A DNA stretch of 64,000 nt from Escherichia coli. GTDB taxonomy: Bacteria; Pseudomonadota; Gammaproteobacteria; Enterobacterales; Enterobacteriaceae. Positions 539-60,924 of the stretch are shown here, one piece after another. The position numbers and the translations under genes are program-made. Numbering within the stretch: the first letter of the stretch is position 1; every line of letters starts with the position of its first letter. The stretch lies in assembly GCF_044324785.1 (NCBI RefSeq), contig NZ_CP172127.1. The stretch is one strand, 5' to 3'. Under the pieces are notes generated by a model that ran no database searches, was not told the DNA's origin, and worked only from the letters and a program-made list of their open reading frames with translations.

Positions 539-540
539 CC

Positions 541-12860: not shown

Positions 12861-12890
12861 GATAACGCGTACTTTGTCGGCAATATGAAG

Positions 12891-13526: not shown

Positions 13527-14537
<1,011 letters not shown>

Positions 14538-14639: not shown

Positions 14640-15053
14640 TTAACTGCCACGATAGGTTGAATACCCATATTGGCTAAGTAATAAAGGCACATGATAATGC
14701 TCGTTCACTTTATTAATATGAAATTCAACGGGGATCTCAGGGAAGAAACTTTCAAGATTTTGTTTCTTGAAATAGTCCCCGGTTTTAAATACGACACGGT
14801 AATCGCCCGTAGTTGCAGTTTGCTCGGGCCACAGTGCCTTAATTCGTCCATCCTTATCTGTTTTGGCGGTATTAAGTTGTAACCAGCCGTTATCCGCTTT
14901 CTTTTCAAGAGTGACTGTCACGTCGGCAGCGGGTTTTCCTGTTTGCTGGTTCAAAATGTGCACGCTAAGAATGTTTTGTTGTGCAGCATAGACCAAAGAA
15001 GGTAATGAAAATGCAGCCGTTACTACGGAGAGTACTAAATAACGCTTTAACAT
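14640..15053 (-). CDS. hiuH: 5-hydroxyisourate hydrolase (transthyretin-like) HiuH (YedX)
   Basis: 137 aa with signal peptide and C-terminal YRGS, the transthyretin-family signature. Confidence 0.9.
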
Positions 15054-15122
15054 GTTTATATCCTTGTCATGTGAATGAGTTTTGAGGATAGCGAAAAAGC
15101 GTCCAGGGTAACCTTACAGAAG

Positions 15123-15140
15123 CATTACAATTTTGTAATG
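15123..15140. promoter_or_regulatory. Perfect 18-bp palindrome in the hiuH-hprR divergent region; candidate HprR/CusR-type box
   Basis: CATTACAATTTTGTAATG lies between the divergent hiuH and hprR starts. Confidence 0.6.
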
Positions 15141-15185
15141 AACCAGGCTGTTTCTATAACATATGATTTATGGCATATTATTTTC

Positions 15186-15857
15186 ATGAAGATTCTACTT
15201 ATTGAAGATAATCAAAGGACCCAGGAATGGGTAACGCAGGGGCTTTCCGAAGCGGGTTATGTCATTGATGCCGTTACTGATGGCAGAGATGGGCTTTATC
15301 TTGCGCTGAAGGATGATTATGCATTGATCATTCTGGATATTATGCTTCCGGGTATGGATGGCTGGCAGATCTTACAAACGTTAAGAACGGCAAAGCAAAC
15401 TCCTGTTATTTGCCTTACTGCAAGAGATTCTGTCGATGACAGAGTCAGAGGGCTGGACAGTGGGGCAAATGATTATCTGGTAAAACCTTTTTCATTTTCT
15501 GAGTTGCTGGCAAGGGTTCGGGCACAATTAAGGCAACATCACGCTTTGAATTCAACATTAGAAATCAGCGGCTTAAGAATGGACTCTGTTAGTCAAAGTG
15601 TGAGCAGGGACAATATCAGTATTACACTGACGCGCAAGGAGTTTCAGTTACTTTGGCTACTGGCCTCCAGAGCTGGCGAAATTATACCCAGAACGGTTAT
15701 TGCGAGTGAAATTTGGGGAATCAACTTTGATAGTGATACCAATACGGTGGATGTCGCCATTCGCAGGCTCCGCGCAAAAGTTGATGATCCTTTTCCTGAA
15801 AAGCTAATCGCCACAATCCGGGGGATGGGCTATTCATTCGTAGCGGTAAAAAAATAA
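15186..15857 (+). CDS. hprR: Two-component response regulator HprR (YedW)
   Basis: OmpR-family receiver plus winged-helix domains (MKILLIEDNQRT...); start chosen at MKILLIEDN. Confidence 0.9.
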   Translation: MKILLIEDNQRTQEWVTQGLSEAGYVIDAVTDGRDGLYLALKDDYALIILDIMLPGMDGWQILQTLRTAKQTPVICLTARDSVDDRVRGLDSGANDYLVKPFSFSELLARVRAQLRQHHALNSTLEISGLRMDSVSQSVSRDNISITLTRKEFQLLWLLASRAGEIIPRTVIASEIWGINFDSDTNTVDVAIRRLRAKVDDPFPEKLIATIRGMGYSFVAVKK

Positions 15858-17215
15858 TGAAAAGATTATCTATAACCGTCCGTTTAACCTTGCTTTTTAT
15901 ATTGCTGCTGTCTGTTGCTGGCGCTGGAATTGTCTGGACTCTCTATAATGGCCTGGCAAGTGAGTTGAAATGGCGCGATGATACAACACTCATTAACCGG
16001 ACAGCGCAGATCAAGCAGTTGTTAATTGATGGGGTAAATCCAGATACGTTACCTGTGTACTTTAACCGGATGATGGATGTTAGTCAGGATATCTTGATCA
16101 TTCATGGTGATGGCATCAATAAAATTGTTAACCGGACGAATGTCAGTGATGACATGTTAAATAACATACCTGCTACTGAGACAATCAGCGCAGCTGGCAT
16201 TTACAGAAGCATTATTAATGACACTGAGATAGATGCTTTACGAATTAATATTGATGAAGTTTCGCCATCATTAACGGTTACTGTGGCTAAATTGGCTTCA
16301 GCCAGACATAACATGCTTGAACAGTATAAAATTAATAGCATTATAATTTGCATTGTCGCCATTATACTGTGCTCAGTATTAAGTCCGTTGTTAATCAGAA
16401 CGGGGTTACGAGAGATCAAAAAGTTGAGTGGTGTAACGGAAGCGCTGAATTATAACGATAGCCGAGAGCCTGTTGAGGTTAGCGCATTACCGAGAGAACT
16501 AAAACCTCTTGGGCAGGCGTTGAATAAAATGCACCAAGCCTTAGTCAAAGATTTTGAACGCCTAAGTCAATTTGCTGACGATCTCGCTCATGAACTTAGA
16601 ACGCCAATTAATGCATTACTGGGTCAGAATCAGGTTACGCTCAGTCAAACCAGAAGTATCGCTGAATATCAAAAAACAATTGCCGGAAACATTGAAGAGC
16701 TGGAAAATATTTCGCGGTTAACAGAGAACATACTGTTTCTTGCCAGGGCAGATAAAAACAATGTTTTGGTGAAACTGGATTCGCTTTCTCTCAATAAGGA
16801 AGTCGAAAATTTGTTGGACTATCTTGAATACCTTTCAGACGAGAAAGAGATTTGCTTTAAGGTCGAGTGCAATCAGCAAATCTTTGCGGATAAAATTTTA
16901 CTGCAACGAATGTTATCGAATCTTATTGTTAACGCTATTCGATATTCACCAGAAAAATCGCGCATTCAGATAACCAGTTTTCTTGATGCCAACGGCTCTC
17001 TTAATATTGATATCGCCAGCCCTGGAACGATAATTAATGAGCCTGAAAAACTCTTCCGTAGATTTTGGCGGGGAGATAATTCGCGTCATTCCGTAGGTCA
17101 GGGACTTGGTCTTTCTTTAGTCAAAGCGATTGCCGAATTGCATGGGGGAAGTGCTACGTATCACTATCTCAATAAGCATAACGTGTTCCGAATTACGTTA
17201 CCGCAAAGAAATTAA
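15857..17215 (+). CDS. hprS: Sensor histidine kinase HprS (YedV)
   Basis: 452 aa with two TM segments, HAMP-like region and H-box (AHELRTPIN); start overlaps the hprR stop. Confidence 0.9.
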   Translation: MKRLSITVRLTLLFILLLSVAGAGIVWTLYNGLASELKWRDDTTLINRTAQIKQLLIDGVNPDTLPVYFNRMMDVSQDILIIHGDGINKIVNRTNVSDDMLNNIPATETISAAGIYRSIINDTEIDALRINIDEVSPSLTVTVAKLASARHNMLEQYKINSIIICIVAIILCSVLSPLLIRTGLREIKKLSGVTEALNYNDSREPVEVSALPRELKPLGQALNKMHQALVKDFERLSQFADDLAHELRTPINALLGQNQVTLSQTRSIAEYQKTIAGNIEELENISRLTENILFLARADKNNVLVKLDSLSLNKEVENLLDYLEYLSDEKEICFKVECNQQIFADKILLQRMLSNLIVNAIRYSPEKSRIQITSFLDANGSLNIDIASPGTIINEPEKLFRRFWRGDNSRHSVGQGLGLSLVKAIAELHGGSATYHYLNKHNVFRITLPQRN

Positions 17216-17322
17216 TATATGTCTTCAGTACGCCTTAAATTAACCATGAAAAAACGCAGCTACGTCGTGAGTATTAACGTGGCTGCGATTGATTATGCGC
17301 TTACATTACAATGTAACAGGGA

Positions 17323-18174
17323 TTAACTCGAGTAAGCGGCCAGCATTTCCTGCGCCGCCAGTTTACCCAACGCATTCGCTGCGAAAGGACTGTCGCCGGT
17401 GAGAACTTTACGGTCCTTATGTACTCGTCCGGTGATGTCGTCATTAATGATGTTCATGCCCATTTTCTTCAGCTCTTCGCCGAAGTACCAGGTGAGATGA
17501 CCCGGCATATAGCCTATCTCTGGCGTTTGTTTGTCTGCGGCGTCTGGGAATGCGCAAATGGAATAACCATTCAGTGGGTTATCGCCGTGGCGAAGCGCCA
17601 GAAAAGCCGCCGGGCCGTGGCAAAGGGAGATAACAAAACGGTCATTTTTGATTGCCCACTGTAAAGCGGCAGCTACGTCCTGGCTTTCAGGTAAACCAAT
17701 AAGTGCGCCATGACCACCAGGAACAAAGATTGCTGCATATTCGCTGTCAGCGTTGAGGCTGGCGACAACATCCGCGAGTTTCTTCGGATTGCGGAACAAC
17801 GATTTATGCTGCTCAAAGAATGGCATTACTTTTTCATCTTTGTGCGGCATAGCCCAGTATTCAAACTTGGTCATCAGACCGGAAATGGTCGCCACTTCGA
17901 ATTCGAAACCTGCAGCATGGAGATGATACAACGGCAGCAACGTTTCAATCGGATGGTTACCGGTCGAGAACAGTTTTCCGTTATCGGTCGGCAAATAACG
18001 TTCGTCCGCGGCGATCACCAGAATTTTATGTTTACCGCGATACGGTTTTGGATAGTCCACGCCATCAAGATCAGAGACAGGACTGGTATATTGGCTAAGC
18101 GAATATTCTGAAGGGAAGAATGCATTATCTTCAGCAATATCGACCTGCGGATTTTTACTTGTTTGAACAGTCAT
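17323..18174 (-). CDS. hchA: Hsp31 glyoxalase/chaperone HchA
   Basis: 283 aa; recognised as E. coli HchA (DJ-1/PfpI family). Confidence 0.9.
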   Translation of the reverse strand: MTVQTSKNPQVDIAEDNAFFPSEYSLSQYTSPVSDLDGVDYPKPYRGKHKILVIAADERYLPTDNGKLFSTGNHPIETLLPLYHLHAAGFEFEVATISGLMTKFEYWAMPHKDEKVMPFFEQHKSLFRNPKKLADVVASLNADSEYAAIFVPGGHGALIGLPESQDVAAALQWAIKNDRFVISLCHGPAAFLALRHGDNPLNGYSICAFPDAADKQTPEIGYMPGHLTWYFGEELKKMGMNIINDDITGRVHKDRKVLTGDSPFAANALGKLAAQEMLAAYSS

Positions 18175-18683
18175 AGTGTATTCCTTATTGTTGCTTAGTT
18201 AGGGTAGTCACTATATTTGCGACTGAGCTGGTCGCTATTTTTAACCAGGCTGGAAAATTGAGTCAATATATCGAAAGCGGTAGTCGGCGGGTGTAAGTAT
18301 GTAATGATGATGCTGCACTGGTGTTGAATATTATTCACGCCAAATTTTCCTTATTGAGCTACGTCGTCGCAAGTGGCCTCAATGATTTTAGACCATTATC
18401 AAAGGTACGGGGCGGCGGGGAGAGATTTAGTTATGTGGAATATTATGGTACTGATGAATATTTATATCCCGGATTGGCAGAGAAAAAGCTTTTTTCATGC
18501 ACTATTTTTGCAAATATTTCTATATGGGAGGCGGTTTTGTTGCGGATTAATTCATAAAGAAATGCATTTGGGTGTTGGCTGGAAGAGACGCTAGTAGATT
18601 TTATTGAGCCAGGAGGGGCGGGGTAATGTGCTGTATCGATATGCTTTGGCAATTGCGTGTGCCGCAGATGGAGATGAAATGCC

Positions 18684-18722
18684 AATAAAAAAGCCTGAGT
18701 TCGATGAGGGACGAACTCAGGC
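18684..18722 (-). terminator. Rho-independent terminator downstream of the porin gene
   Basis: Hairpin GCCTGAGTTCG...CGAACTCAGGC, followed on the minus strand by TTTTTTATT. Confidence 0.6.
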
Positions 18723-18765
18723 TATTGTTATGTTTTACAGTAACACGCCGCAGCGCGTTGGCTGA

Positions 18766-19881
18766 TTAGAACTGGTAGACGATACCAACTGCAAACTGGT
18801 CATCAGCTGCTGCGCCAGTAATGGCGGCGTCATCTTTATCCAGCATGTTGAATTTGTATGCAGTATAAACGTTCATGTTCTTATTGAAGTAGTACCAGGT
18901 ACCAACTTCAATGTAGTTCACACGGTCAGCGTCAACATATCTATGTCCAGGTACACCTTTGATATCTTTACCTTTAGAATACACATAACCTAAGGACGGA
19001 CGCAGACCAAAGTCGAATTGATACTGAACAACCGCTTCAAAGTTCTGGGTTTCATTGATAAGTTGATCACGCATTATTGTATTGCCTTCTCGATCGGCAA
19101 CACCTGTATCAATAGAACCCGGAGTCATATTACGAGTTTCACCGTACATTACAGCTGCGTAGACATTGTTCGCGTCATACTTTGCAGCCAATGACCACAG
19201 TTCAGCATTTGAACCGTTTCCATCGGCAACTTGATCGTTGGTGCGATCAGATTTGCTATATGCACCAACGATACCAAAACCATTGATGTTATAGTCTACA
19301 GACAACGCATAGCCGTCACCATTTTGTTTCTTAGTGCTACGGTTGCTGTTTTTGCCTTGGTACTGAATCGCAAAATCAAGACCATCAACCAGGCCAAAGA
19401 AATCATAGTTACGGTAGGTTGCAACACCGTTGGTACGACCATTCATGAAGTTGTCAGCGGAAGCCCAGGAATCGCCACCCCATTCAACTAACATATCGGT
19501 ATAAGCTGCGGCATCATAAGCAACACCGTAGTTACGGCCATAGTCAAATGATCCTAACTCGTTATATTTCAAACCGGCGAAGGTTAAACGGGTTTTTTCC
19601 TGGTTTTCACCTTCAGGTTTGCTGGCGTCGAGGTTGTATTCAAACTGACCGAAACCAGTCAGTTCGCTGGTGATTTGGGTTTCACCTTTAACACCGAAAC
19701 GAGCATAGGAGGTATCTTCGTTTTCGCTGTTATTATCATCAGTATTTGACCAGATGCGTTCGCCAACCATCTTGCCGTAGAAATCAACTTTATTGCCATC
19801 TTTATTATAAATTTCAGCCGCATTTGCTGCGCCAGCAACTAATAACGCCGGGACCAGCATTGCCAGAACTTTTCTTTTCAT
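18766..19881 (-). CDS. yedS: OmpC/OmpF-family outer-membrane porin, apparently intact (YedS-like)
   Basis: Signal peptide [21 protein letters not shown], then [10 protein letters not shown], and C-terminal ...VGIVYQF typical of general porins. One uninterrupted ORF at the K-12 yedS position. Confidence 0.85.
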
Positions 19882-20192
19882 TATGTATTCCCTTGTGATT
19901 ATAATCTTCATGAATATATCAATAAGTGCCGTTATCCAAAAAAAAGCACATTTGGATACTATTCTATGAAGTTCATTTTATTTTAAGGATTACATGTAAC
20001 AAATGTATTTAAAAGATTTCAAAATGTTTCTAATCTATTTAATATAATTCAGAATTATGAATTCTAGATATAAATATTCATGATAATTATGAATATATAT
20101 CAATATGTTATGAGTTGATTGGAAAGATAGGAAGTATCAATGATTGCGGCGCTAAACGGCTGATGTGATCACGCGCACATTAATGAAGGCAT

Positions 20193-29964: not shown

Positions 29965-30253
29965 GGCATACCCTCACTCAATGCGTAACGATAATTCCCC
30001 TTACCTGAATATTTCATCATGACTAAACGGAACAACATGGGTCACCTAATGCGCCACTCTCGCGATTTTTCAGGCGGACTTACTATCCCGTAAAGTGTTG
30101 TATAATTTGCCTGGAATTGTCTTAAAGTAAAGTAAATGTTGCGATATGTGAGTGAGCTTAAAACAAATATTTCGCCGCAGGAGTATCCTGGAAGATGTTC
30201 GTAGGTATTATTTTTCGGATAATCCTTAGGATAACATGATAAACGTTACGGAA

Positions 30254-31039
30254 TTATATTAATGGCAATTCACTAATAATATCAGCCAGCAAATTAAACA
30301 TCTCACTGAATAAATGTTCGCAAAAAGGCGCAATTAACGGCATTAATGCCGCCATTAAAGAGATACCGACAGTCAGAGTTAATGGAAATCCAATAACAAA
30401 AATGGATAATTGCGGAGCCATACGATTAAGTAAACCTAATGCCAGATTCAGGGTCAGCAGCAGAGTAATGAGCGGTAACGCCAGCATCAGCCCGTTAAGG
30501 AAAATCAAACTCCCTGCTTTGGTGAGTGCCAGAAACGCATTGCTGTTCAACGGTTCGCCACCAATTGGCAGGGTGTGAAAGGTATCGACCAGCAGTGAAA
30601 TCAACCATAAATGACCGTTAAATGTCAGGAACAGCAGTAACGCCAGCATATCCATGATACGCGCTAAAACGGGCATATTGAGATGGCTGGCCGGATCGAC
30701 AAACGTCGCAAATGACAGCCCCATTTGCAGACCGATAATTTCACCAGCGGTTCGCACAGCGGCAAAGGCAAATTGCATGGTAAAACCAAGCGCAATGCCG
30801 ATCAGGATCTGCTGCACGGCCAGCCACAGAGCAAAGAACGAAAAAACAGGAACATCGTTGGCAGGTAATGATGGGGCAATAGCGAACGTGATCATCATTG
30901 CCAGACCCAGTTTTACCCGTTTCGGCACGCTGCGTTCGCTCAGAATTGGCGCGGTAGAAATGAGCGCCAGCACGCGCAGTAACGGCCAGAAGTACAGACT
31001 TAGCCAGGAAAGCCATTGATCGCTTGTCACCTGCAACAT
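30254..31039 (-). CDS. fliR: Flagellar export apparatus protein FliR
   Basis: 261-aa membrane protein, last gene of the fliL operon. Confidence 0.9.
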
Positions 31040-31047
31040 TGTACGGG

Positions 31048-31317
31048 CTACCCGATGATATACGGCAGGTTAGTGAACAAGGTGCGGACGTAATCCAGCA
31101 ACAGATTGAGCATCCACGGTCCGGCAATAATAATGGCGATAAATACGGCGATGATTTTCGGAATAAACGACAGCGTCATTTCGTTGATCTGCGTGGCGGC
31201 CTGCAAAATACTGATGATAAGGCCCGTGACCAGCGCCACCAGCAACAGTGGGGCAGCCAGTGCCAGCGCGACTTTCATCGCTTCAGTCCCCATCATCATG
31301 ACCGATTCAGGTGTCAT
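31048..31317 (-). CDS. fliQ: Flagellar export apparatus protein FliQ
   Basis: 89 aa; recognised. Confidence 0.9.
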
Positions 31318-31326
31318 TTTGCCTCT

Positions 31327-32064
31327 CTAGCTGTAAAAGCTCTGCGCCAGCGAACCGACCAGCAATTGCCAGCCATCCACCAGTACAAACAGCATCAGTT
31401 TAAAGGGCAGAGCAATGGTGGCTGGGGGAACCATCATCATCCCCAATGCCATCAACACGCTGGCAATCACCAGGTCGATAATCAAAAACGGAATGAAGAT
31501 CGTGAAGCCTATCTGAAATGCGGTTTTCAACTCGCTGGTCACGTAGGCTGGGAGCAAAATGCGCATCGGCACGGCTTCAGGTCCCTGCAACGGGCCGGTA
31601 TTCGCTAGTCTGGCAAACAACCCTAAATCCGCCTCACGGGTCTGACGCAGCATAAACTCACGTAGCGGCTGCGCCCCTTTTTCCAGCGCCTCCTGCATTG
31701 AGATTTTCTCTTCGCTGAATGGCTGGTACGCATCGACATAAATTTTGTCGATCACCGGTGACATAATAAAAAAGGTCAAAAACAGTGCCAGCCCCAGCAA
31801 TACCTGGTTAGGTGGCGCGGAGGGCGTTCCCAGCGCGTTACGCAATAAACCAAAAACAATGATGATGCGGGTGAAACTGGTCATCATCAGTAAAATTGCC
31901 GGAATAAACGTCAACGAGGTGATGAACACCAGCGTCTGCACCGGGAGCGACCAGCTTTGTCCACCGCCAGGCAGCGGCTGGCTGGTGATACCCGGCAGTT
32001 GCGCGAAGGCGAGGGGCGTAACCAGCCAGAGAAGGACAGGTGCGACAGACAACAAACGACGCAT
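31327..32064 (-). CDS. fliP: Flagellar export apparatus protein FliP
   Basis: 245 aa with signal peptide; recognised. Confidence 0.9.
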
Positions 32065-32432
32065 CAGGATCTCCCGCTACGCTTAAGCAAGTTTTTCATG
32101 ACCGACTGAAAATCGGTCTGCGGTATCTCTTCCGTTGGTGCTGAAGGGGGAAGTTTATGCAGCAGATTGATTTGCCCTGCGGTAACGCCGAGCACCAGCC
32201 GTGCATCTTCCACATCGACCACCACAACCCGTTCACGCGCGCCCAGCGAAGCACTGGCGCTAATTTTCAGACCGTTAACGCCAGTTCGTTTAGGGGCAAA
32301 TCCCAGCCGTTTTACCAGCCAGGCAGCAGCGAGGATCAGGGCAATAATGGCGATGAGTGCGCCGCTCACCTGCAGCAGTGGCGCAGCAGAAATCGGCGCG
32401 GAAGATTGCACAGTAGCGTGGTTATTCATCAC
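32064..32432 (-). CDS. fliO: Flagellar protein FliO
   Basis: 122 aa, single TM; position. Confidence 0.85.
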
Positions 32433-32845
32433 TAACGGCTCAGGCGACGCATTCGCTCAGACGGAGTAATGATATCGGTGATCCGCACGCCATATTTATC
32501 GGCAACGACCACCACTTCGCCCTGGGCGATTAAATAACCGTTGATCAGAATATCCAGCGGTTCGCCCGCCAGACCGTCCAGCGCCACGACGGACCCTTGC
32601 GTCAGACGCAACAGCTCTTTGATGGTCATCCGCGTACGGCCCAGCTCGACGGTCAGCTTGACCGGAATATCCATAATCAGGTCGATATCCTGCAACGTTC
32701 CGCTGACATCTCCGCCGCCAAATTGCTGGAACACTGCGTCGGCAGCGCTTTTGCCGCTGGTTGATTTTTGTTCGCTCAACGCTTCAGCCCACAGATCGTC
32801 CATTGCGCCGTTGTTGTCATCGGCCGGATTATTCATGTCACTCAT
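32432..32845 (-). CDS. fliN: Flagellar motor switch protein FliN
   Basis: 137 aa; recognised. Confidence 0.9.
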   Translation of the reverse strand: MSDMNNPADDNNGAMDDLWAEALSEQKSTSGKSAADAVFQQFGGGDVSGTLQDIDLIMDIPVKLTVELGRTRMTIKELLRLTQGSVVALDGLAGEPLDILINGYLIAQGEVVVVADKYGVRITDIITPSERMRRLSR

Positions 32846-48202: not shown

Positions 48203-48612
48203 CAGACTGGGTCCTGAATCAAAGAAGGGGAGAGTAAAGACTCTTTCCAGGCATCGGCAATATTACGCATTAATGCTTCCACTTCTTCGACTGCGGAGAC
48301 ATCGTTGCGTAAATTGGCTTGCAGCAAGCGCCTGACCATATAGCTATAAAGAGCAATCAAGTTTTGGGTTAGTTCGTCTTTGCTCTCTTCATCAAGACTC
48401 ACCCGCAGCCCGTTCTCAATGATGTTGATCGCTTTTGACAAAGAGACGCCTTTGCCTTGCTGATTGTTGTCCTGCATAAACAGGCGCGCTCTAACCAGTG
48501 CGCTCAGCACTCCATCAAATAGCATGGTGACCAGCTGTTGCTGGCTGGCGCTCATTACGGCGCTTTCGACGCCAATTTGTGCATAGGCTTTTGAGCCGCT
48601 CGCGGTATACAT
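48202..48612 (-). CDS. fliS: Flagellin-specific chaperone FliS
   Basis: 136 aa; recognised. Confidence 0.9.
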
Positions 48613-48626
48613 GCTGACCTCCGTGA

Positions 48627-50039
48627 TCAGGAATTACTCATTGCAGTAAATTGTTGGCTGAGATAGGTACTGGTGTTATTCAGTTTGCTCATCATGGTAT
48701 CTAATTGCGTAAACTGTGCAGTGTAACGCGCCACGGTGTCATCAATGCTGGCACTGACGGATAGATACTGTTTGGTCAGTTTTTTCAGTGTGGCGTTAAT
48801 ACTGTCCTGTGCGCTATCAATAATGCCATCATCGGCAAGGTAACCTTTTACCTCGGTGGCAATTTTGGTGGTAATTCCTGTTTCTTTACCATCGCCTACC
48901 AGCAATTCACGTACGGATGCTGTATTTTCATTCAGGACTTTTTTGAGTTTATCATCATCAATTTTCAGCTTACCCGTCGTGCCGTCCTGCTTAATCCCGA
49001 TCTCGTTTAATGTTTTGAAGGCACCGTCGCTGGCACCGTTTGCAAATTGTGCGCGGATGCCGCTTTGAATTGTACGTACAACGCTGTCTCCGAGAAGTGC
49101 ACCATTATTTTTATCTTGTGCTTCAGCACCTGGGTCTACTTCTTTATATTTTGTCAGGGTGTTAAAGGTGTCAATGAGGGAGTTATATGAATCCACCCAG
49201 CCTTTAATTGCTTCGGTTGCTTTATCGTTGCTTTTTGTCACCGTGACCCGGACGTCAGTGACTTTTTTGGTCAAATCGAGAGTCACTCCCTGAGGAGCAT
49301 CGGTAATTTTGTTACTTGAACGTTCAATATCGATACCGTTAACGTTTAGCTGTGCATTTTGCGCGTTAACCAGTTCCTTCATATTCCCGGTGTTGGTCTT
49401 GCTGTCATAAGCCAGCAGATCATTTAATTTACTGTCACCCTCAACAGATATGGTCATTTTATTGGCCAGACCTTCACTGGCGGTCAATACCAATTGATAG
49501 TTACCATCTTTGACTTTAACGATACTAGCGGAAATTCCACTATCGGCATCGTTAATGGCTTTGCTGATCTCATCCAATGACGTCTGATCTTTATTGAGCT
49601 TGATTTCCAGCGGCTCTTTACGACCGTCTTGGGTAATTTTTATTGTGCGTGTATCTGATGACTCATCACCCAGTGCATCTTTTGTTGATGCAATGATTGT
49701 CGGGGAATCAGTTCGTAAAGATTGCGCCTGCGCCAGTTGGGTTACGCTGATGGTATAGATACCGGGGGCAGCACCTGCTTCGGTGGAAACTTTAAGGTCT
49801 TCATTGCTACTGGTAACGGTAGTGCTTTTGAACAGATCGGCTTTATTTAACGCAGTATTTGCAGTCTGGAATTTTTCTAATGCACTTTTTAATGTGCCAT
49901 AGGCTGTCAGACGTGCGGTATTGTCACTCTGTTGCTGAGTAATTGGGTTTAAGCGTTTTTTTTCAGCGATGGTCAGGTTGTTTAGCAATGTATCCAGCGG
50001 CAGATTCGAACCAACGCCAAGAGATGTAAATGAAGCCAT
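48627..50039 (-). CDS. fliD: Flagellar filament cap protein FliD
   Basis: Start chosen at MASFTSLGVGSNLPLDTLL; the longer upstream ORF would overrun the sigma-28 promoter. Confidence 0.9.
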   Translation of the reverse strand: MASFTSLGVGSNLPLDTLLNNLTIAEKKRLNPITQQQSDNTARLTAYGTLKSALEKFQTANTALNKADLFKSTTVTSSNEDLKVSTEAGAAPGIYTISVTQLAQAQSLRTDSPTIIASTKDALGDESSDTRTIKITQDGRKEPLEIKLNKDQTSLDEISKAINDADSGISASIVKVKDGNYQLVLTASEGLANKMTISVEGDSKLNDLLAYDSKTNTGNMKELVNAQNAQLNVNGIDIERSSNKITDAPQGVTLDLTKKVTDVRVTVTKSNDKATEAIKGWVDSYNSLIDTFNTLTKYKEVDPGAEAQDKNNGALLGDSVVRTIQSGIRAQFANGASDGAFKTLNEIGIKQDGTTGKLKIDDDKLKKVLNENTASVRELLVGDGKETGITTKIATEVKGYLADDGIIDSAQDSINATLKKLTKQYLSVSASIDDTVARYTAQFTQLDTMMSKLNNTSTYLSQQFTAMSNS

Positions 50040-50076
50040 ACCTAATTCCTTTTGATTGCAAACAGTAGATAAGCGG

Positions 50077-50103
50077 GTTATCGGCAATTTGTGCGCAAAG
50101 TTT
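50077..50103 (-). promoter_or_regulatory. Sigma-28 (FliA) class 3 promoter for fliDST
   Basis: On the minus strand reads TAAACTTT-N11-GCCGATAA, a near-perfect sigma-28 consensus, about 40 bp upstream of the fliD start. Confidence 0.8.
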
Positions 50104-50197
50104 AATAGTTGATTCACGAAGATGATGCGCAGAGTAGAGTTGTATATTACGGATATTTCAGCCGTTAAGAAAAAACAGGAGAGAAACTAAAATTTTC

Positions 50198-50224
50198 TAA
50201 AGTTCGAAATTCAGGTGCCGATAC
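50198..50224 (+). promoter_or_regulatory. Sigma-28 (FliA) class 3 promoter for fliC
   Basis: TAAAGTTC-N11-GCCGATAC about 70 bp upstream of the fliC ATG. Confidence 0.8.
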
Positions 50225-50293
50225 AAGGGGTACGGTGAGAAACCGTGGGCAACAGCCCAATAACATCAAGTTGTAATTGATAAGGAAAAGATC

Positions 50294-51787
50294 ATGGCAC
50301 AAGTCATTAATACAAACAGCCTGTCGCTGTTGACCCAGAATAACCTGAACAAATCTCAGTCTTCTCTGAGCTCCGCCATTGAACGTCTCTCTTCTGGCCT
50401 GCGTATTAACAGTGCTAAAGATGACGCAGCAGGTCAGGCGATTGCTAACCGTTTTACGGCAAATATTAAAGGTCTGACTCAGGCTTCCCGTAACGCGAAT
50501 GATGGTATTTCTGTTGCGCAGACCACTGAAGGTGCGCTGAATGAAATTAACAACAACCTGCAGCGTATTCGTGAACTTTCTGTTCAGGCAACTAACGGTA
50601 CTAACTCTGACAGTGACCTGACCTCCATCCAGTCCGAAATCCAGCAACGTCTGAGTGAAATTGACCGTGTTTCTGGTCAGACTCAGTTTAACGGCGTTAA
50701 AGTGCTGGCTTCTGATCAGGATATGACTATTCAGGTTGGTGCAAACGACGGCGAAACAATTACTATTAAACTGCAGGAAATTAATTCCGACACACTGGGA
50801 TTATCTGGTTTTGGTATTAAAGATCCTACTAAATTAAAAGCCGCAACAGCTGAAACAACCTATTTTGGATCGACAGTTAAGCTTGCTGACGCTAATACAC
50901 TTGATGCAGATATTACAGCTACAGTTAAAGGCACTACGACTCCGGGCAAACGTGACGGTAATATTATGTCTGATGCTAACGGTAAGTTGTACGTTAAAGT
51001 TGCCGGTTCAGATAAACCCGCTGAAAATGGTTATTATGAAGTTACTGTGGAGGATGATCCGACATCTCCTGATGCAGGTAAGCTGAAGCTGGGGGCTCTA
51101 GCGGGTACCCAGCCTCAAGCAGGTAATTTAAAGGAAGTCACAACGGTGAAAGGGAAGGGGGCTATTGATGTTCAGTTGGGTACTGATACCGCAACCGCTT
51201 CTATCACAGGTGCAAAACTCTTTAAGTTAGAAGACGCTAATGGCAAAGATACTGGTTCATTTGCGTTGATTGGTGATGACGGTAAACAGTATGCAGCGAA
51301 TGTTGATCAGAAAACAGGTGCAGTTTCCGTTAAAACAATGTCTTACACTGATGCTGACGGTGTCAAACACGACAATGTTAAAGTTGAACTGGGTGGAAGC
51401 GATGGCAAAACCGAAGTTGTAACTGCAACCGATGGCAAAACTTACAGTGTTAGTGATTTACAAGGTAAGAGCCTGAAAACTGATTCTATTGCAGCAATTT
51501 CTACGCAGAAAACAGAAGATCCTTTGGCTGCTATCGATAAAGCACTGTCTCAGGTTGACTCGTTGCGTTCTAACCTAGGTGCAATTCAAAACCGTTTCGA
51601 CTCTGCCATCACCAACCTTGGCAACACCGTAAACAACCTGTCTTCTGCCCGTAGCCGTATCGAAGATGCTGACTACGCGACCGAAGTGTCTAACATGTCT
51701 CGTGCGCAGATCCTGCAACAAGCAGGTACTTCTGTTCTGGCACAGGCTAACCAGACCACGCAGAACGTACTGTCTCTGCTGCGTTAA
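50294..51787 (+). CDS. fliC: Flagellin FliC (H antigen); central variable domain differs from K-12
   Basis: Conserved N-terminus (MAQVINTNSLSLLTQNNLNKSQS...) and C-terminus (...QNVLSLLR) with a divergent middle; 497 aa. Confidence 0.95.
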   Translation: MAQVINTNSLSLLTQNNLNKSQSSLSSAIERLSSGLRINSAKDDAAGQAIANRFTANIKGLTQASRNANDGISVAQTTEGALNEINNNLQRIRELSVQATNGTNSDSDLTSIQSEIQQRLSEIDRVSGQTQFNGVKVLASDQDMTIQVGANDGETITIKLQEINSDTLGLSGFGIKDPTKLKAATAETTYFGSTVKLADANTLDADITATVKGTTTPGKRDGNIMSDANGKLYVKVAGSDKPAENGYYEVTVEDDPTSPDAGKLKLGALAGTQPQAGNLKEVTTVKGKGAIDVQLGTDTATASITGAKLFKLEDANGKDTGSFALIGDDGKQYAANVDQKTGAVSVKTMSYTDADGVKHDNVKVELGGSDGKTEVVTATDGKTYSVSDLQGKSLKTDSIAAISTQKTEDPLAAIDKALSQVDSLRSNLGAIQNRFDSAITNLGNTVNNLSSARSRIEDADYATEVSNMSRAQILQQAGTSVLAQANQTTQNVLSLLR

Positions 51788-51805
51788 TCGCCGCTATATT
51801 CTGCC

Positions 51806-51830
51806 AAACCCCGCTCCGGCGGGGTTTTTT
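51806..51830 (+). terminator. Rho-independent terminator of fliC
   Basis: AAACCCCGCTCCGGCGGGGTTTTTT hairpin plus T-run just after the fliC stop. Confidence 0.8.
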
Positions 51831-51952
51831 CTACCCGGCAAATAGCCGTAACCCCCAAATAACCCCTCATTTCACCCACTAATCGTCCGATTAAAAACCC
51901 TGCAGAAACGGATAATCGTGCCGATAACTCATATAACGCAGGGCTGTTTATC

Positions 51953-52672
51953 GTGAATTCACTCTATACCGCTGAAGGTGTAATGGATAAACACTCGCTG
52001 TGGCAGCGTTATGTCCCGCTGGTGCGTCACGAAGCATTGCGCCTGCAGGTTCGACTGCCCGCGAGCGTGGAACTTGACGATCTGCTACAGGCGGGCGGCA
52101 TTGGGTTACTTAATGCCGTCGAACGCTATGACGCCCTACAAGGAACGGCATTTACAACTTACGCAGTGCAGCGTATCCGTGGCGCTATGCTGGATGAACT
52201 TCGCAGCCGTGACTGGGTGCCGCGCAGCGTGCGACGCAACGCGCGTGAAGTGGCACAGGCAATAGGGCAACTGGAGCAGGAACTTGGCCGCAACGCCACG
52301 GAAACTGAGGTAGCGGAACGTTTAGGGATCGATATTGCCGATTATCGCCAAATGTTGCTCGACACCAATAACAGCCAGCTCTTCTCCTACGATGAGTGGC
52401 GCGAAGAGCACGGCGATAGCATCGAACTGGTTACTGATGATCATCAGCGAGAAAACCCGCTACAACAACTGCTGGACAGTAATCTGCGCCAGCGGGTGAT
52501 GGAAGCTATCGAAACGTTGCCGGAGCGGGAAAAACTGGTATTAACCCTCTATTATCAGGAAGAGCTGAATCTCAAAGAGATTGGCGCGGTGCTGGAGGTC
52601 GGGGAATCGCGGGTCAGTCAGTTACACAGCCAGGCCATTAAACGGTTACGCACTAAACTGGGTAAGTTATAA
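51953..52672 (+). CDS. fliA: Flagellar sigma factor FliA (sigma-28)
   Basis: 239 aa; recognised. A GCCGATAA -10-like element lies upstream at 51920-51927. Confidence 0.95.
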   Translation: MNSLYTAEGVMDKHSLWQRYVPLVRHEALRLQVRLPASVELDDLLQAGGIGLLNAVERYDALQGTAFTTYAVQRIRGAMLDELRSRDWVPRSVRRNAREVAQAIGQLEQELGRNATETEVAERLGIDIADYRQMLLDTNNSQLFSYDEWREEHGDSIELVTDDHQRENPLQQLLDSNLRQRVMEAIETLPEREKLVLTLYYQEELNLKEIGAVLEVGESRVSQLHSQAIKRLRTKLGKL

Positions 52673-52717
52673 CGTCAGTAAATGCCGCACTTTAATTTTG
52701 ACTACCAGGAGTTCTTA

Positions 52718-53269
52718 ATGATGGTGCAGCACCTGAAAAGACGGCCATTAAGCCGCTATCTTAAAGACTTTAAACACAGCCAGACCCATTGCGCGCATTG
52801 CCGTAAATTACTCGATCGCATTACCTTAGTTCGCGACGGCAAAATAGTGAATAAAATCGAGATTTCCCGCCTGGACATGCTGCTTGATGAAAATGGCTGG
52901 CAAACGGAACAAAAATCATGGGCGGCATTGTGCCGATTTTGCGGTGATTTACATTGCAAAACGCAGAGTGATTTTTTCGATATTATCGGTTTTAAGCAAT
53001 TTCTTTTTGAGCAAACTGAAATGAGCCCAGGTACGGTGCGTGAATATGTCGTTCGTCTGCGCCGTTTGGGTAATCATCTACACGAGCAAAATATTTCCCT
53101 CGATCAGCTGCAGGACGGTTTCCTTGATGAAATCCTCGCCCCATGGCTGCCCACCACCAGCACCAACAATTACCGCATCGCGTTACGGAAGTATCAACAC
53201 TATCAGCGTCAAACGTGTACCGGACTTGTGCAGAAATCCTCCAGCCTGCCTGCTTCTGATATATATTAA
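52718..53269 (+). CDS. fliZ: Regulator FliZ
   Basis: Start chosen at MMVQHLKRRPL (183 aa). Confidence 0.85.
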   Translation: MMVQHLKRRPLSRYLKDFKHSQTHCAHCRKLLDRITLVRDGKIVNKIEISRLDMLLDENGWQTEQKSWAALCRFCGDLHCKTQSDFFDIIGFKQFLFEQTEMSPGTVREYVVRLRRLGNHLHEQNISLDQLQDGFLDEILAPWLPTTSTNNYRIALRKYQHYQRQTCTGLVQKSSSLPASDIY

Positions 53270-53356
53270 ATAAGAATAAGATGTAGCGGAGTTGTTTTTG
53301 TGTTTACAAACAATGGCTCTACACTGCAAACAGACATAACAACATTCGGGGTGAAT

Positions 53357-55248
<1,892 letters not shown>

Positions 55249-55262
55249 CTCCGGAAACGCTC

Positions 55263-55931
55263 ATGCAAGAAAGTATACAACTGGTTATTGATTCCTTGCC
55301 GTTCCTGCTGAAAGGGGCTGGGTATACGCTGCAACTCAGTATCGGCGGCATGTTTTTTGGCTTACTACTCGGGTTTATTCTCGCGCTGATGCGCCTGTCG
55401 CCAATCTGGCCCGTGCGCTGGCTGGCGCGTTTTTATATCTCTATTTTTCGTGGTACGCCGCTCATCGCACAACTGTTTATGATCTATTACGGCCTGCCGC
55501 AGTTTGGCATCGAACTAGATCCCATTCCGTCAGCAATGATTGGTCTGTCGCTAAACACTGCCGCCTATGCTGCCGAAACGCTGCGCGCCGCCATTTCTTC
55601 TATTGATAAAGGTCAGTGGGAAGCTGCTGCCAGTATTGGTATGACGCCGTGGCAGACCATGCGTCGCGCGATTTTGCCACAGGCGGCGCGGGTGGCGTTG
55701 CCGCCGCTGTCGAACAGCTTTATCAGCCTGGTAAAAGATACGTCGCTGGCCGCGACAATCCAGGTGCCGGAGCTGTTCCGTCAGGCGCAGTTGATTACCT
55801 CGCGCACGCTGGAAGTGTTCACCATGTACCTGGCGGCTTCGCTCATCTACTGGATCATGGCGACAGTGTTATCGACGTTGCAGAACCATTTTGAGAATCA
55901 ACTTAATCGCCAGGAGAGAGAACCAAAATGA
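55263..55931 (+). CDS. tcyL: Cystine ABC transporter permease TcyL (YecS)
   Basis: 222 aa with the ABC permease EAA-like motif; recognised. Confidence 0.9.
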   Translation: MQESIQLVIDSLPFLLKGAGYTLQLSIGGMFFGLLLGFILALMRLSPIWPVRWLARFYISIFRGTPLIAQLFMIYYGLPQFGIELDPIPSAMIGLSLNTAAYAAETLRAAISSIDKGQWEAAASIGMTPWQTMRRAILPQAARVALPPLSNSFISLVKDTSLAATIQVPELFRQAQLITSRTLEVFTMYLAASLIYWIMATVLSTLQNHFENQLNRQEREPK

Positions 55932-56680
55932 GTGCCATTGAAGTTAAGAACCTGGTGAAAAAATTCCACGGTCAGACGGTGCTGCACGGTATCGACCTTG
56001 AGGTGAAGCCTGGCGAAGTAGTGGCAATTATCGGTCCGAGTGGTTCCGGCAAAACCACGTTGCTACGCAGCATAAATCTGCTGGAACAACCGGAAGCGGG
56101 AACCATCACCGTTGGCGATATCACCATTGATACTGCACGTTCATTAAGTCAGCAAAAATCGCTGATTCGCCAGTTGCGTCAGCACGTCGGGTTTGTCTTC
56201 CAGAACTTTAATTTGTTTCCGCATCGTACGGTGCTGGAAAACATTATTGAAGGGCCGGTGATCGTCAAAGGCGAACCAAAAGAAGAGGCCACGGCGCGCG
56301 CTCGCGAGCTGCTGGCGAAAGTTGGGCTGGCAGGTAAAGAAACCAGCTATCCACGTCGTTTGTCTGGCGGTCAACAGCAGCGTGTTGCGATTGCGCGTGC
56401 GCTGGCAATGCGTCCTGAGGTGATTTTGTTTGACGAGCCAACGTCGGCGCTGGATCCAGAGCTGGTGGGCGAGGTCCTGAACACCATCCGTCAGCTGGCG
56501 CAGGAAAAGCGCACGATGGTGATTGTGACGCACGAAATGAGCTTTGCCCGGGATGTTGCGGACCGGGCGATTTTTATGGACCAGGGGCGGATAGTCGAGC
56601 AGGGGGCAGCAAAAGCGTTATTTGCCGATCCCCAGCAGCCTCGCACCCGCCAGTTCCTCGAGAAGTTTCTGCTGCAATAA
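55928..56680 (+). CDS. tcyN: Cystine ABC transporter ATPase TcyN (YecC)
   Basis: 250 aa with Walker A (GPSGSGKTT), signature LSGGQQQR and Walker B (ILFDEPTSALD). Confidence 0.95.
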   Translation: MSAIEVKNLVKKFHGQTVLHGIDLEVKPGEVVAIIGPSGSGKTTLLRSINLLEQPEAGTITVGDITIDTARSLSQQKSLIRQLRQHVGFVFQNFNLFPHRTVLENIIEGPVIVKGEPKEEATARARELLAKVGLAGKETSYPRRLSGGQQQRVAIARALAMRPEVILFDEPTSALDPELVGEVLNTIRQLAQEKRTMVIVTHEMSFARDVADRAIFMDQGRIVEQGAAKALFADPQQPRTRQFLEKFLLQ

Positions 56681-56909
56681 TAAGAAAAAATCAGCCCCGA
56701 CGATTCACCTGTCGGGGCGGGACGCCATTTCAAGCGTGATAAAACTGCTTAACAAATCAGCATAACTCATTAATAACATAAGAGAATGCGATGGCTTGCA
56801 AAAGTAATTCATTGCCTGAATAATATAAATTATATATAAATCTTATTTATGTGATAGTTTGAATTATCATTATAAATGATACTCACTCTCAGGGGCGTTG
56901 CGGTTTACT

Positions 56910-57632
56910 ATGCAGGATACGGATTTTTTCAGCTGGCGTCGCACGATGCTGTTGCGTTTTCAGAGGATGGAGGCCGCAGAAGAGGTCTACCATGAAATAG
57001 AGCTTCAGGCTCAGCAGCTGGAGTACGATTACTATTCGTTATGTGTTCGCCACCCGGTACCATTCACGCGACCTAAAGTGGCTTTCTACACCAATTACCC
57101 TGAGGCGTGGGTTAGTTATTATCAGGCAAAAAACTTTCTCGCAATTGATCCGGTGCTGAACCCTGAAAACTTTAGTCAGGGCCATTTAATGTGGAATGAT
57201 GACTTATTCAGCGAAGCTCAGCCGTTATGGGAAGCCGCGCGCGCACATGGTTTACGCCGCGGTGTCACTCAGTATTTAATGCTGCCAAACCGGGCGCTGG
57301 GCTTTTTGTCCTTTTCCCGTAGCAGCGCGCGCGAAATACCCATTCTTAGTGATGAACTGCAATTAAAAATGCAGTTACTGGTGCGCGAAAGTCTGATGGC
57401 TCTGATGCGTTTAAATGATGAAATAGTGATGACGCCAGAGATGAATTTCAGCAAGCGCGAAAAAGAAATTTTGAAATGGACGGCGGAAGGGAAGACATCA
57501 GCAGAGATAGCGATGATTTTGTCAATCTCTGAGAATACGGTCAATTTCCATCAGAAAAACATGCAGAAAAAAATCAATGCACCAAATAAGACCCAGGTGG
57601 CCTGTTACGCGGCCGCTACTGGCTTAATTTGA
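56910..57632 (+). CDS. sdiA: LuxR-family quorum-sensing regulator SdiA
   Basis: Start chosen at MQDTDFFSWRR (240 aa); recognised. Confidence 0.9.
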   Translation: MQDTDFFSWRRTMLLRFQRMEAAEEVYHEIELQAQQLEYDYYSLCVRHPVPFTRPKVAFYTNYPEAWVSYYQAKNFLAIDPVLNPENFSQGHLMWNDDLFSEAQPLWEAARAHGLRRGVTQYLMLPNRALGFLSFSRSSAREIPILSDELQLKMQLLVRESLMALMRLNDEIVMTPEMNFSKREKEILKWTAEGKTSAEIAMILSISENTVNFHQKNMQKKINAPNKTQVACYAAATGLI

Positions 57633-57660
57633 TCTCTTTTCTGTTCTGCGTGCCAGATGC

Positions 57661-57697
57661 AAAAACCGGCTGAAAGGCACGCTCTCAGCCGGTTTTA
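57661..57697. terminator. Bidirectional rho-independent terminator between sdiA and yecF
   Basis: AAAAACCGGCTGA...TCAGCCGGTTTTAT, with an A-run on one side and a T-run on the other. Confidence 0.7.
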
Positions 57698-57699
57698 TA

Positions 57700-57924
57700 T
57701 TACTGACGGTAGGCTTGTTTAATTTGCTTAACCGTTTTGGAAAATACTGCAGCCTGGGTTTCGTCTTCGATCAGCGCAAGCTGTTTTTCCATCTTTAACA
57801 TCACGCGGCCCGCGTCAGCTTGTCCCATCGCCTGCAGCATCAGCGTCAGCATCGCTTTCAGGCAGGAGACTTCATTTGCCAGTTCTTGATTATTCTCGGC
57901 AGTAGAAAAATCAGGCGTACTCAT
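57700..57924 (-). CDS. yecF: Small protein YecF
   Basis: 74 aa; recognised. Confidence 0.85.
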
Positions 57925-58382
57925 TTATTTTCCTCGTCATGTTGCAATGAAAATTTGCGGTGAAAAATGTTAAGGCGGCGGAGTATACCATAAGCTTTGC
58001 TAAAAATAGCAGTGGTTGTTTTTTGAGCGTGATATCGGCAGTACTATAAAATACGTTAATATAATGACCAATAAATATTTTTATCATGAATGTTTTTTGC
58101 CCGTATTGTTCGGGTTAATTAATGTTACATATTCAGCGGGCTGATTTTCATTTTTGCTGAATAAAGTCAATTTTTGTCACATTTCATCGCCGGGCTTACT
58201 GTGAAACGATCCCGGAAGCCGTTGGTGACGGGCGTGACCATAACTGTGGACAATCGAATTTACAAAAACGAGAGAAAAATCGAATACCCACCATTTTTAA
58301 CGTTTCAAAGTTGCAATAAAAACCGCTAATATACGAATGACTAACTATCAGTAGCGTTATCCCTATTTCTGGAGATATTCCT

Positions 58383-59039
58383 TTGATCAACGTTCTACTT
58401 GTTGATGACCACGAACTGGTGCGCGCAGGGATACGACGCATTCTGGAAGATATAAAGGGTATAAAAGTCGTCGGTGAGGCATCGTGCGGTGAAGACGCCG
58501 TTAAGTGGTGCCGGGCAAATGCCGTTGACGTGGTGCTAATGGACATGAGTATGCCGGGCATTGGCGGTCTTGAGGCGACGCGTAAAATCGCGCGTTCCAC
58601 AGCTGATGTCAAAATCATCATGCTTACCGTCCATACAGAAAACCCTTTACCAGCGAAAGTCATGCAGGCCGGTGCTGCGGGCTACCTCAGCAAAGGCGCG
58701 GCTCCGCAGGAAGTCGTGAGTGCGATTCGTTCTGTCTATTCAGGGCAGCGTTACATTGCTTCTGACATCGCTCAACAAATGGCGTTAAGCCAGATCGAAC
58801 CAGAAAAAACAGAAAGCCCATTTGCCAGTTTGTCTGAACGTGAATTGCAGATTATGCTGATGATCACCAAGGGCCAGAAGGTCAATGAGATCTCAGAACA
58901 GCTCAATCTCAGTCCGAAAACGGTGAACAGCTACCGCTATCGTATGTTCAGTAAACTAAACATTCATGGCGATGTTGAGCTGACTCACCTGGCAATTCGC
59001 CATGGTCTGTGTAATGCGGAGACATTATCAAGTCAGTGA
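58383..59039 (+). CDS. uvrY: Response regulator UvrY (BarA partner)
   Basis: 218 aa with receiver domain and LuxR-type HTH; apparent TTG start. Confidence 0.9.
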
Positions 59040-60868
59040 GTGATCAGTTTGACGCAAAAGCGTTTTTAAAAACCGTAACCAGCCAGCCAGGCGTTTATCG
59101 CATGTACGATGCTGGTGGTACGGTTATCTATGTCGGCAAAGCGAAAGACCTGAAAAAACGGCTTTCCAGCTATTTCCGTAGCAACCTCGCTTCGCGCAAA
59201 ACCGAAGCGCTGGTCGCCCAGATCCAGCAAATTGATGTAACGGTTACTCATACAGAAACCGAAGCGCTGTTGCTTGAACACAACTACATCAAACTCTATC
59301 AGCCGCGTTACAACGTTTTGCTACGCGATGATAAATCTTATCCTTTTATCTTCCTGAGTGGCGATACCCATCCGCGTCTGGCGATGCATCGTGGTGCGAA
59401 GCATGCCAAAGGTGAATATTTCGGCCCGTTCCCGAATGGCTATGCCGTACGTGAAACACTGGCGCTACTGCAAAAGATTTTCCCCATTCGCCAGTGCGAA
59501 AATAGTGTTTATCGCAATCGCTCGCGTCCGTGTCTGCAATATCAGATAGGGCGCTGTCTGGGACCGTGCGTTGAAGGACTGGTGAGTGAAGAAGAATACG
59601 CTCAGCAGGTCGAGTATGTGCGCCTGTTTTTGTCTGGCAAAGATGATCAGGTGCTTACGCAACTCATTAGCCGTATGGAAACTGCCAGCCAGAATCTGGA
59701 GTTTGAAGAAGCGGCACGTATTCGCGACCAAATTCAGGCGGTGCGACGCGTCACCGAAAAACAGTTTGTGTCCAATACCGGCGACGACCTCGACGTTATT
59801 GGTGTAGCGTTCGATGCGGGCATGGCTTGTGTCCACGTATTGTTCATTCGTCAGGGTAAAGTGCTCGGCAGCCGCAGCTATTTCCCGAAAGTGCCGGGCG
59901 GTACGGAACTGAGCGAGGTGGTGGAAACCTTCGTAGGTCAGTTCTATTTACAAGGCAGCCAGATGCGCACCTTACCGGGTGAGATCCTGCTCGATTTTAA
60001 TCTTAGCGATAAAACGCTGCTCGCCGATTCCCTTTCAGAACTGGCGGGACGCAAGATTAATGTTCAAACCAAACCTCGCGGCGATCGGGCGCGTTATCTG
60101 AAACTCGCGCGCACCAATGCGGCGACGGCCTTAACCAGCAAACTTTCGCAGCAATCTACCGTTCACCAGCGACTGACCGCGCTTGCCAGCGTGTTGAAAT
60201 TACCGGAAGTGAAGCGGATGGAGTGCTTTGACATCAGCCATACCATGGGTGAACAAACCGTCGCTTCCTGTGTGGTGTTTGATGCTAACGGCCCGCTGCG
60301 TGCGGAGTATCGGCGCTATAACATTACTGGCATTACGCCGGGCGATGATTATGCGGCGATGAATCAGGTGCTGCGTCGGCGTTATGGTAAAGCCATCGAC
60401 GACAGTAAGATCCCGGATGTGATCCTTATCGACGGCGGCAAAGGCCAGCTTGCGCAGGCGAAAAATGTCTTCGCCGAACTGGATGTCTCATGGGATAAAA
60501 ATCATCCGCTGCTACTTGGCGTTGCCAAAGGTGCAGATAGGAAGGCAGGGTTGGAAACGCTGTTCTTTGAGCCGGAAGGTGAGGGATTCAGTTTGCCGCC
60601 AGATTCTCCCGCGCTGCATGTTATCCAGCATATTCGCGACGAATCACACGATCACGCGATTGGTGGGCACCGTAAAAAACGGGCGAAGGTCAAAAATACC
60701 AGTTCCCTGGAAACCATTGAAGGCGTCGGGCCAAAACGTCGGCAAATGTTGTTGAAATATATGGGCGGTTTGCAAGGTTTACGTAACGCCAGCGTCGAGG
60801 AAATTGCAAAAGTGCCGGGTATTTCGCAAGGTCTGGCAGAAAAGATCTTCTGGTCGTTGAAACATTGA
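59036..60868 (+). CDS. uvrC: Excinuclease ABC subunit C UvrC
   Basis: 610 aa with GIY-YIG N-terminus ([18 protein letters not shown]); apparent GTG start overlapping the uvrY stop. Confidence 0.95.
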
Positions 60869-60924
60869 TGTCTCTGTAGCAACATAGGGGTAATCTTACT
60901 GACAACAGATAGTTACCCGTCATT

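Follow-up and report, generated by a model that had tools for sequence, protein, structure and literature searches.

Which flagellar (H) antigen is encoded by the fliC gene carried on this stretch of Escherichia coli DNA, and how far does its departure from the K-12 sequence extend? Fifty-three classical H antigens, H2 among them, are distinguished in E. coli, and the replacement of one by another through recombination is textbook knowledge. Genes for H2 flagellin are known from the pathogens O103:H2, O45:H2 and O80:H2. The sequence analysed here, referred to as the window, is a stretch of 64,000 nt from contig NZ_CP172127.1 (assembly GCF_044324785.1). A first-pass annotation made from the letters of the window had described a flagellin with conserved D0/D1 termini and a central domain unlike that of K-12, and had proposed on these grounds both a different H serotype and a strain not derived from K-12.

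The fliC gene, its neighbours and its expression signals

The gene order was obtained from an ORF map and is the normal one for a fliC locus: amyA, fliT, fliS and fliD are followed, in divergent orientation, by fliC, fliA and fliZ, then by tcyJ and dcyD. The same order is found in two RefSeq-annotated E. coli genomes. The coordinates of the individual features are collected in Table 1. The fliA gene starts 166 nt downstream of fliC, and the ORFs of the fliE-fliR region further downstream have the same lengths as in K-12. Two gene starts called by the ORF lister were over-extended. The ATG of fliD at 50039 agrees with the RefSeq annotation and was preferred to the GTG at 50117, and fliZ (52682) was listed with 195 aa in place of the 183 annotated. 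Two ORFs listed within fliC, one antisense (50165-50647, minus strand) and one out of frame (50865-51086, plus strand), were discarded as artefacts of the same lister. No IS element was found in the 64-kb window.

Table 1. Coordinates of the features of the fliC locus (nucleotide positions are those of the window; aa positions are those of FliC)
Feature	Position	Strand	Evidence or remark
amyA	46272-47759	-	
fliT, FliD chaperone and regulator, K-12-type	47837..48202	-	Pfam FliT; 97.5% aa identity to K-12
fliS, chaperone for flagellin export, K-12-type after codon 8	48202..48612	-	Pfam FliS; 96% aa identity to K-12
fliD, filament cap, 470 aa, non-K-12 lineage	48627..50039	-	Pfam FliD_N, FliD_C; NCBIfam NF005955, 665 bits
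Sigma-28 promoter of fliD(ST)	50078..50104	-	TAAACTTT-N11-GCCGATAA; faces away from the fliC promoter
Sigma-28 (class 3) promoter of fliC	50198..50224	+	TAAAGTTC-N11-GCCGATAC
fliC CDS, 497 aa, allele typed as H2	50294..51787, including stop codon	+	Exact ORF match
Flagellin_N	aa 5-140		Pfam, E 2.4e-45
Flagellin_D3	aa 196-286		Pfam
FLIC_barrel	aa 348-392		Pfam
Flagellin_C	aa 411-496		Pfam, E 3.8e-31
N-terminal part compared with K-12 FliC	aa 1-175		141/175 identical, 81%; global alignment
Central part compared with K-12 FliC	aa 176-425		97/261 aligned positions identical, 37%; global alignment
C-terminal part compared with K-12 FliC	aa 426-497		54/73 identical, 74%; global alignment
Central stretch used for in-silico typing	50850..51450	+	601 nt
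Segment separating H2 from nearest relatives (D3, aa ~190-305)	50863..51207	+	Sliding identity
Rho-independent terminator of fliC	51808..51832	+	CCCCGC-TCCG-GCGGGG followed by a T run; terminator scan
fliA (sigma-28), K-12-type	51953..52672	+	99.3% nt, 99.6% aa identity to K-12
Block of K-12-divergent sequence: fliS codons 1-8, fliD, promoter spacer, fliC, start of fliC-fliA spacer	~48589..51865		

Four domains were identified in the 497-aa product of fliC by a Pfam scan. Assignment to the FliC/FljB family was provided by NCBIfam, with 623.6 bits for NF005953 (cut-off 619) and 535 bits for NF005294 (cut-off 387). This collection holds no H-type-specific models and the allele is therefore not typable there. 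The protein carries at aa 89-96 the sequence LQRIRELS, which we take to be the conserved D1 site recognised by TLR5.

The whole 64-kb window was scanned for the sigma-28 motif TAAAGTTT-N11-GCCGATAA with at most two mismatches. Only two sites were returned, to be compared with 0.04 expected by chance, and both of them are located in the fliD-fliC spacer, where they face outward. The site serving fliC is placed 70 nt 5' of the ATG. At the other end of the gene, the terminator is kept in K-12 and in Citrobacter, and the 3'UTR (51788-51832) measures only ~45 nt, as in Citrobacter. The sole match produced by an Rfam scan of 47500-53500 was RsmY on the fliC terminator; its score of 21.6 bits is below the threshold of 57 and it was dismissed as a chance hit. 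On account of the sigma-28 promoters, the terminator and the K-12-length flagellar ORFs downstream, fliC looks functional, and its expression is predicted. Filament formation and motility would likewise be expected from an intact fliC accompanied by intact neighbouring flagellar genes.

Assignment of the H type

The K-12 reference, MG1655 1996000-2008000, was aligned with the window. FliC is 57.6% identical overall to the MG1655 protein, the identity being distributed along the chain as given in Table 1. The first-pass annotation had placed the difference in the central ~250 residues (about 170-420), and this is borne out by the 37% identity measured over aa 176-425. The divergence varies in degree, and an island of ~54% identity to K-12 FliC occurs at aa 326-375 in the D2 barrel. 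The conserved D0/D1 termini that had been announced are indeed present; they are not, however, K-12 sequence, with only 73-77% identity at the nucleotide level (77.5% at the 5' end and 72.7% at the 3' end). K-12 FliC is itself identical at 497 of 498 positions to the NCBI cluster 'H48 family flagellin FliC', and K-12 is given as H48 in PMC548302.

The central 601 nt of the gene were then used for in-silico typing against 5,426 complete E. coli genomes. A match was obtained in exactly 112 of these, at an identity of at least 99.2% in every case, and the matching records include O45:H2 FWSEC0003, O103:H2 20151001 and O103:H2 PV16-126. The whole gene shares 99.7% nucleotide identity with that of strain 2013C-4991, an O80:H2 EHEC (PMC8537712). 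The allele of this strain is the commonest H2 allele among complete genomes and is separated from that of the window by 4 nt and 3 aa, namely S35G, S242P and P243A (the window having G35, P242 and A243). The exact FliC protein of the window was found in 575 blocks of public assemblies. The fliC genes of the named O103:H2, O45:H2 and O80:H2 strains lie at this locus too and likewise encode 497 aa. In view of the near-identity to them, the gene is very probably an intact fliC whose product is the flagellar antigen H2, and the different H serotype foreseen in the first pass thereby receives a number. The strain names in RefSeq records and one paper form the basis of the H2 call, and reading the serotype from fliC alone presupposes that the genome outside the window has no further flagellin locus (flk, fll, flm or fln). 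The H2 antigen and its recombination type are already known, and the gene is an ordinary serotype marker: it supplies the H part of the serotype and helps strain identification, and does not represent new biology.

The complete-genome H2 allele closest to that of the window (99.9%) belongs to E. coli CUWW10 (NZ_CP182145.1). It is broken near its 5' end by an IS1X2 insertion, and CUWW10 is therefore probably non-motile.

Relatives outside the H2 cluster were retrieved with a full-length FliC protein search. Identities of 90-91% were obtained with clusters P0011 and P0012, 87% with the E. fergusonii-named flagellins P0013 and P0014, 86% with an E. coli island flagellin (P0015), 86% and 71% with Citrobacter (P0016 and P0021, respectively) and 75% with Buttiauxella (P0019). 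The P0012 locus displays the gene order and backbone divergence of the named E. fergusonii loci. The segment that separates H2 from its nearest relatives corresponds to D3, where the identity falls to 42-78% both with E. fergusonii fliC and with the flk-like island flagellin.

Other readings of the allele were weighed against these data. One is that the allele is that of K-12 (H48) or a close derivative; the lengths of the two proteins are close (497 and 498 aa), with the Pfam D3 and barrel domains present in both. The protein identities reported above, overall and central, speak against this, as do the lack of any megablast match to a K-12-like fliC in the central region and flanks that are only ~98% identical to K-12. 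The direct alignment with MG1655 FliC refutes an H48 identity, to which we give no credence whatsoever, and the allele is, as first claimed, not H48. A different, cross-reacting H type that is merely H2-like in sequence would be a more subtle alternative: close relatives that depart from it mainly in D3 do exist, namely E. fergusonii FliC (87-91%) and the island flagellin (86%), and two of the substitutions of the window allele fall within D3 (aa 242-243). With the named H2 strains the D3-coding core nevertheless shares at least 99.2% identity, a level to be set against the 42-78% of the related alleles in this segment, and we consider a distinct type extremely improbable.

The chance is only marginally greater that fliC, although intact, is unexpressed and that the H type is set by a flk, fll, flm or fln locus with a fljA-like repressor situated outside the window. 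Such loci exist in E. coli (PMC7018530), and other E. coli assemblies contain, next to a Flag1_repress gene, a flagellin 86% identical to the present one. Neither a locus of the flk/fll/flm/fln type nor a phase variation locus of the fljBA type was found within the 64-kb window, however, and the downstream neighbour of fliC is fliA and not a Flag1_repress gene as in the former. Moreover, fliC is inactivated in H-type strains that carry these loci (PMC7018530), whereas the gene described here is intact and has its promoter. The serotyped O103:H2 and O45:H2 strains also have the same fliC. The assignment to H2 was retained.

Extent and relatives of the fliD-fliC block

The first-pass annotation had confined the departure from K-12 to fliC, an extent that proved too narrow. 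A sliding comparison with MG1655 gave 38-83% identity throughout a block of about 48589-51865, and 96-100% up to 48588 and from 51873. The left junction of the block falls between codons 8 and 9 of fliS: codons 1-8 (MYTASGSK, ~48586-48612, minus strand) are Citrobacter-like and the remainder of the gene is K-12-like. This position of the junction inside fliS means that K-12-type FliS and FliT are paired with FliC and FliD of a foreign type. The right junction lies within 51809-51872, between the fliC terminator and ~51872. In comparison with the O80:H2 strain, 10 mismatches were counted over the 3,364 nt of 48589-51952 (99.7% identity), a segment comprising the block and the rest of the fliC-fliA spacer, against 123 mismatches in 6,130 nt of flanks (98.0%). 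The block is therefore younger than the surrounding chromosome or mobile independently of it. The fliD-fliC spacer of H2 strains does not differ from that of the window, and their linked fliD matches the window gene at 99.6-99.9%. As judged from these alignments, a block of ~3.3 kb containing fliD and fliC is exchanged between lineages by recombination in conserved flanks, a process that has been described generally for H antigens (PMC7018530).

The flanks also settle the relationship of the strain to K-12. They are 97.6-98.1% identical to MG1655, which is sufficient in itself to show that the strain is not K-12. The first-pass conclusion of a strain not derived from K-12 was thus right, and the fliC termini and fliD belong to a non-K-12 lineage as well. 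The best identity to any of the 5,426 complete genomes is 98.2% over 30000-50000 and 99.1% over 52000-64000, and the first 20 kb (1-20000), which bear a prophage, are 95-96% identical to complete E. coli genomes. Over the 7,494 nt that were compared, no difference from the window was found in the draft assembly GCA_044081815.1. The source lineage is under-represented among complete genomes and present among draft assemblies. A Shigella or a cryptic Escherichia clade was considered as the source on account of the modest best matches to complete genomes; the window is free of IS elements, the fli genes compared are of K-12 length and the flanks share 97.6-99.1% identity with E. coli. At the left end of the window, the region 1-13400, located beside hprS/hprR, matches annotated phage tail sheath, tail fibre and VgrG-like sequences at ~95-96% identity, as would fit a P2-like prophage or a tailocin region.

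The FliD sequence of the window was scanned against one genome per species. Its best match outside E. coli is Citrobacter portucalensis (85.8% aa identity), with 81-84% for other members of the C. freundii complex and 76% for Salmonella diarizonae. In a Citrobacter contig (L054), fliD has a nucleotide identity of 85.5% and the backbone genes amyA, fliA and dcyD are 81-84% identical, so that the distance between the window fliD and that of Citrobacter is roughly the one separating ordinary orthologues. Among solved structures, those of Salmonella FliD outscore by far the E. coli K-12 FliD fragment. The fliD-plus-spacer type of the window is present in 862 of the 5,426 complete E. coli genomes (~16%), always with at least 99% identity, and its carriers include records of O103:H2, O111:H2, O111:H8 and O91:H21; this Citrobacter/Salmonella-like lineage has almost no internal diversity within E. 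coli. The K-12-type fliD was found in 3,189 of the same genomes at 95-100% identity, and about a quarter of them have neither type. A further copy was encountered in a 3.5-kb sequence labelled 'MAG: Collinsella sp.' (JAIJJM010000335.1), whose fliD is 99.6% identical to the window at the nucleotide level; the beginning of fliS and another fliC allele (56% aa) are present there as well. Contamination of an actinobacterial MAG by E. coli is almost certainly the explanation.

The K-12-type proteins have relatives of their own. FliD, FliS and FliT of this type are nearest to those of Superficieibacter, with 78-80%, 85-86% and 72% aa identity, respectively, against only ~50%, 65% and 35% in E. fergusonii, Salmonella and Citrobacter. 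K-12 FliA, for its part, is 91-94% identical in all four taxa alike. These protein identities suggest that the common fliDST operon of E. coli may itself be an imported lineage.

The relationships of fliC are different from those of fliD and vary along the gene. E. fergusonii fliC genes (L048-L051) share the domain plan of the window allele and are 98-100% identical to it at the nucleotide level on ~50203-50860 and from ~51208 to the terminator (97-100% in the sliding comparison on either side of D3), with 99.6% and 99.3% at the 5' and 3' ends. They differ from it in the D3 segment, as described above, and in the linked fliD, which is only 70% identical in nucleotides and 71% in amino acids. 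These E. fergusonii-type genes occupy the fliC locus on a different backbone, which has 83-85% nucleotide identity (85% for amyA and 82.7% for fliA). An identity of 98-100% outside D3 in spite of such a backbone looks as if E. coli and E. fergusonii had recently exchanged the fliC transcription unit, in either direction, with D3 swapped. It has been generalised that intermediate forms of the variable region are not seen (PMC7018530). A set of D3-swap mosaics that H2 may share with Citrobacter, Buttiauxella, E. fergusonii and a mobile flk-like island would be an uneasy fit to this generalisation.

The functioning of the locus can be proposed from established flagellar biology. Sigma-28 (FliA) would transcribe fliC late in flagellar assembly, FliS would chaperone the FliC monomer to the flagellar export apparatus, and the monomers would polymerise under the FliD cap by means of their helical D0/D1 termini. 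D2 and D3 (aa ~175-405) would be exposed at the surface and would bear the serological specificity. As to its origin, the ~3.3 kb block would derive from an evolutionary lineage other than that of the K-12 block. Its fliD is Citrobacter-like and nearly unchanged across E. coli of several H types, and its fliC is a mosaic, near-identical to E. fergusonii fliC except in D3. The entry of the block would have followed the ordinary route of H-antigen switching, homologous recombination within the conserved flanks.

A broader proposal can be formulated from these observations, on which we are evenly divided: E. coli would keep at least two deep, trans-specific lineages of filament and cap, one K-12-type and the other Citrobacter/Salmonella-like, the window would be a hybrid of the two, and H2 would be one of the D3-swap mosaics. 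The two fliD lineages, the junction in fliS, the swapping of D3, the near-identity with E. fergusonii and the Superficieibacter affinity of the K-12-type fliDST may be less widely appreciated. The locus offers an example of H-antigen mobility in which cap and flagellin travel as one block, joined to its surroundings within fliS on one side and within the fliC-fliA spacer on the other. The pattern also includes the swapping of D3 on a shared scaffold and the near-identical fliC termini of E. coli and E. fergusonii, and in its wider form it is possibly of interest for flagellar evolution and for the compatibility of chaperones with their substrates.

Comparison with known flagellin systems

The system described here resembles that of K-12 (H48) in its locus, its neighbours, its four-domain plan, its sigma-28 promoter and the near-equal length of the flagellin. 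It differs in the linked FliD, the K-12 protein being 49.8% identical to that of the window, and in the 3'UTR of fliC, which is ~150 nt longer in K-12 and there includes most of the annotated FliX sRNA together with a REP-like element. This insert of ~150 nt is missing in the window, where the shared terminator remains.

Salmonella was compared at the levels of sequence and structure. A sequence search of solved structures gave full-length alignments to Salmonella FljB and FliC as well as to E. coli K-12 FliC, and the identity to S. enterica FliC/FljB (1UCU, 3A5X, 6JY0 and 9GNZ) is 55-59% over the full length. An AlphaFold model built from a 13-sequence alignment is confident over aa ~175-390 (pLDDT 80-93) and poor in the terminal helices. 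Its best Foldseek match is the Salmonella FliC filament 1UCU (E 1.7e-31, 58% identity), with a global TM-score of 0.26, a low value owing to the poor confidence of the model in the terminal helices. The model lends support to a Salmonella-like plan of D2 and D3. The C-terminus, ending in LSLLR, is Salmonella-like, and the linked FliD is far closer to Salmonella FliD than to that of E. coli K-12. The differences from Salmonella are that the central region corresponds to another antigen and that the window is devoid of a fliB methylase gene between fliC and fliA.

The last comparison concerns the second flagellin loci. The P0015 flagellin was found in the E. coli drafts GCA_043773605.1 and GCA_043765675.1, on a mobile island. 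A resolvase and an IS91-family transposase are nearby, and a Flag1_repress (fljA-like) gene comes directly 3' of the flagellin; this island is a flk-like second flagellin locus. Its flagellin shares with the window fliC a D1/D2 scaffold of 95-100% nucleotide identity, a likeness that extends neither to D3 nor to the extreme ends. The two systems are also distinguished by their genomic context: the flagellin of the flk-type island is part of a mobile element together with Flag1_repress, whereas the gene of the window, free of such a repressor, is seated at the native fliC locus.
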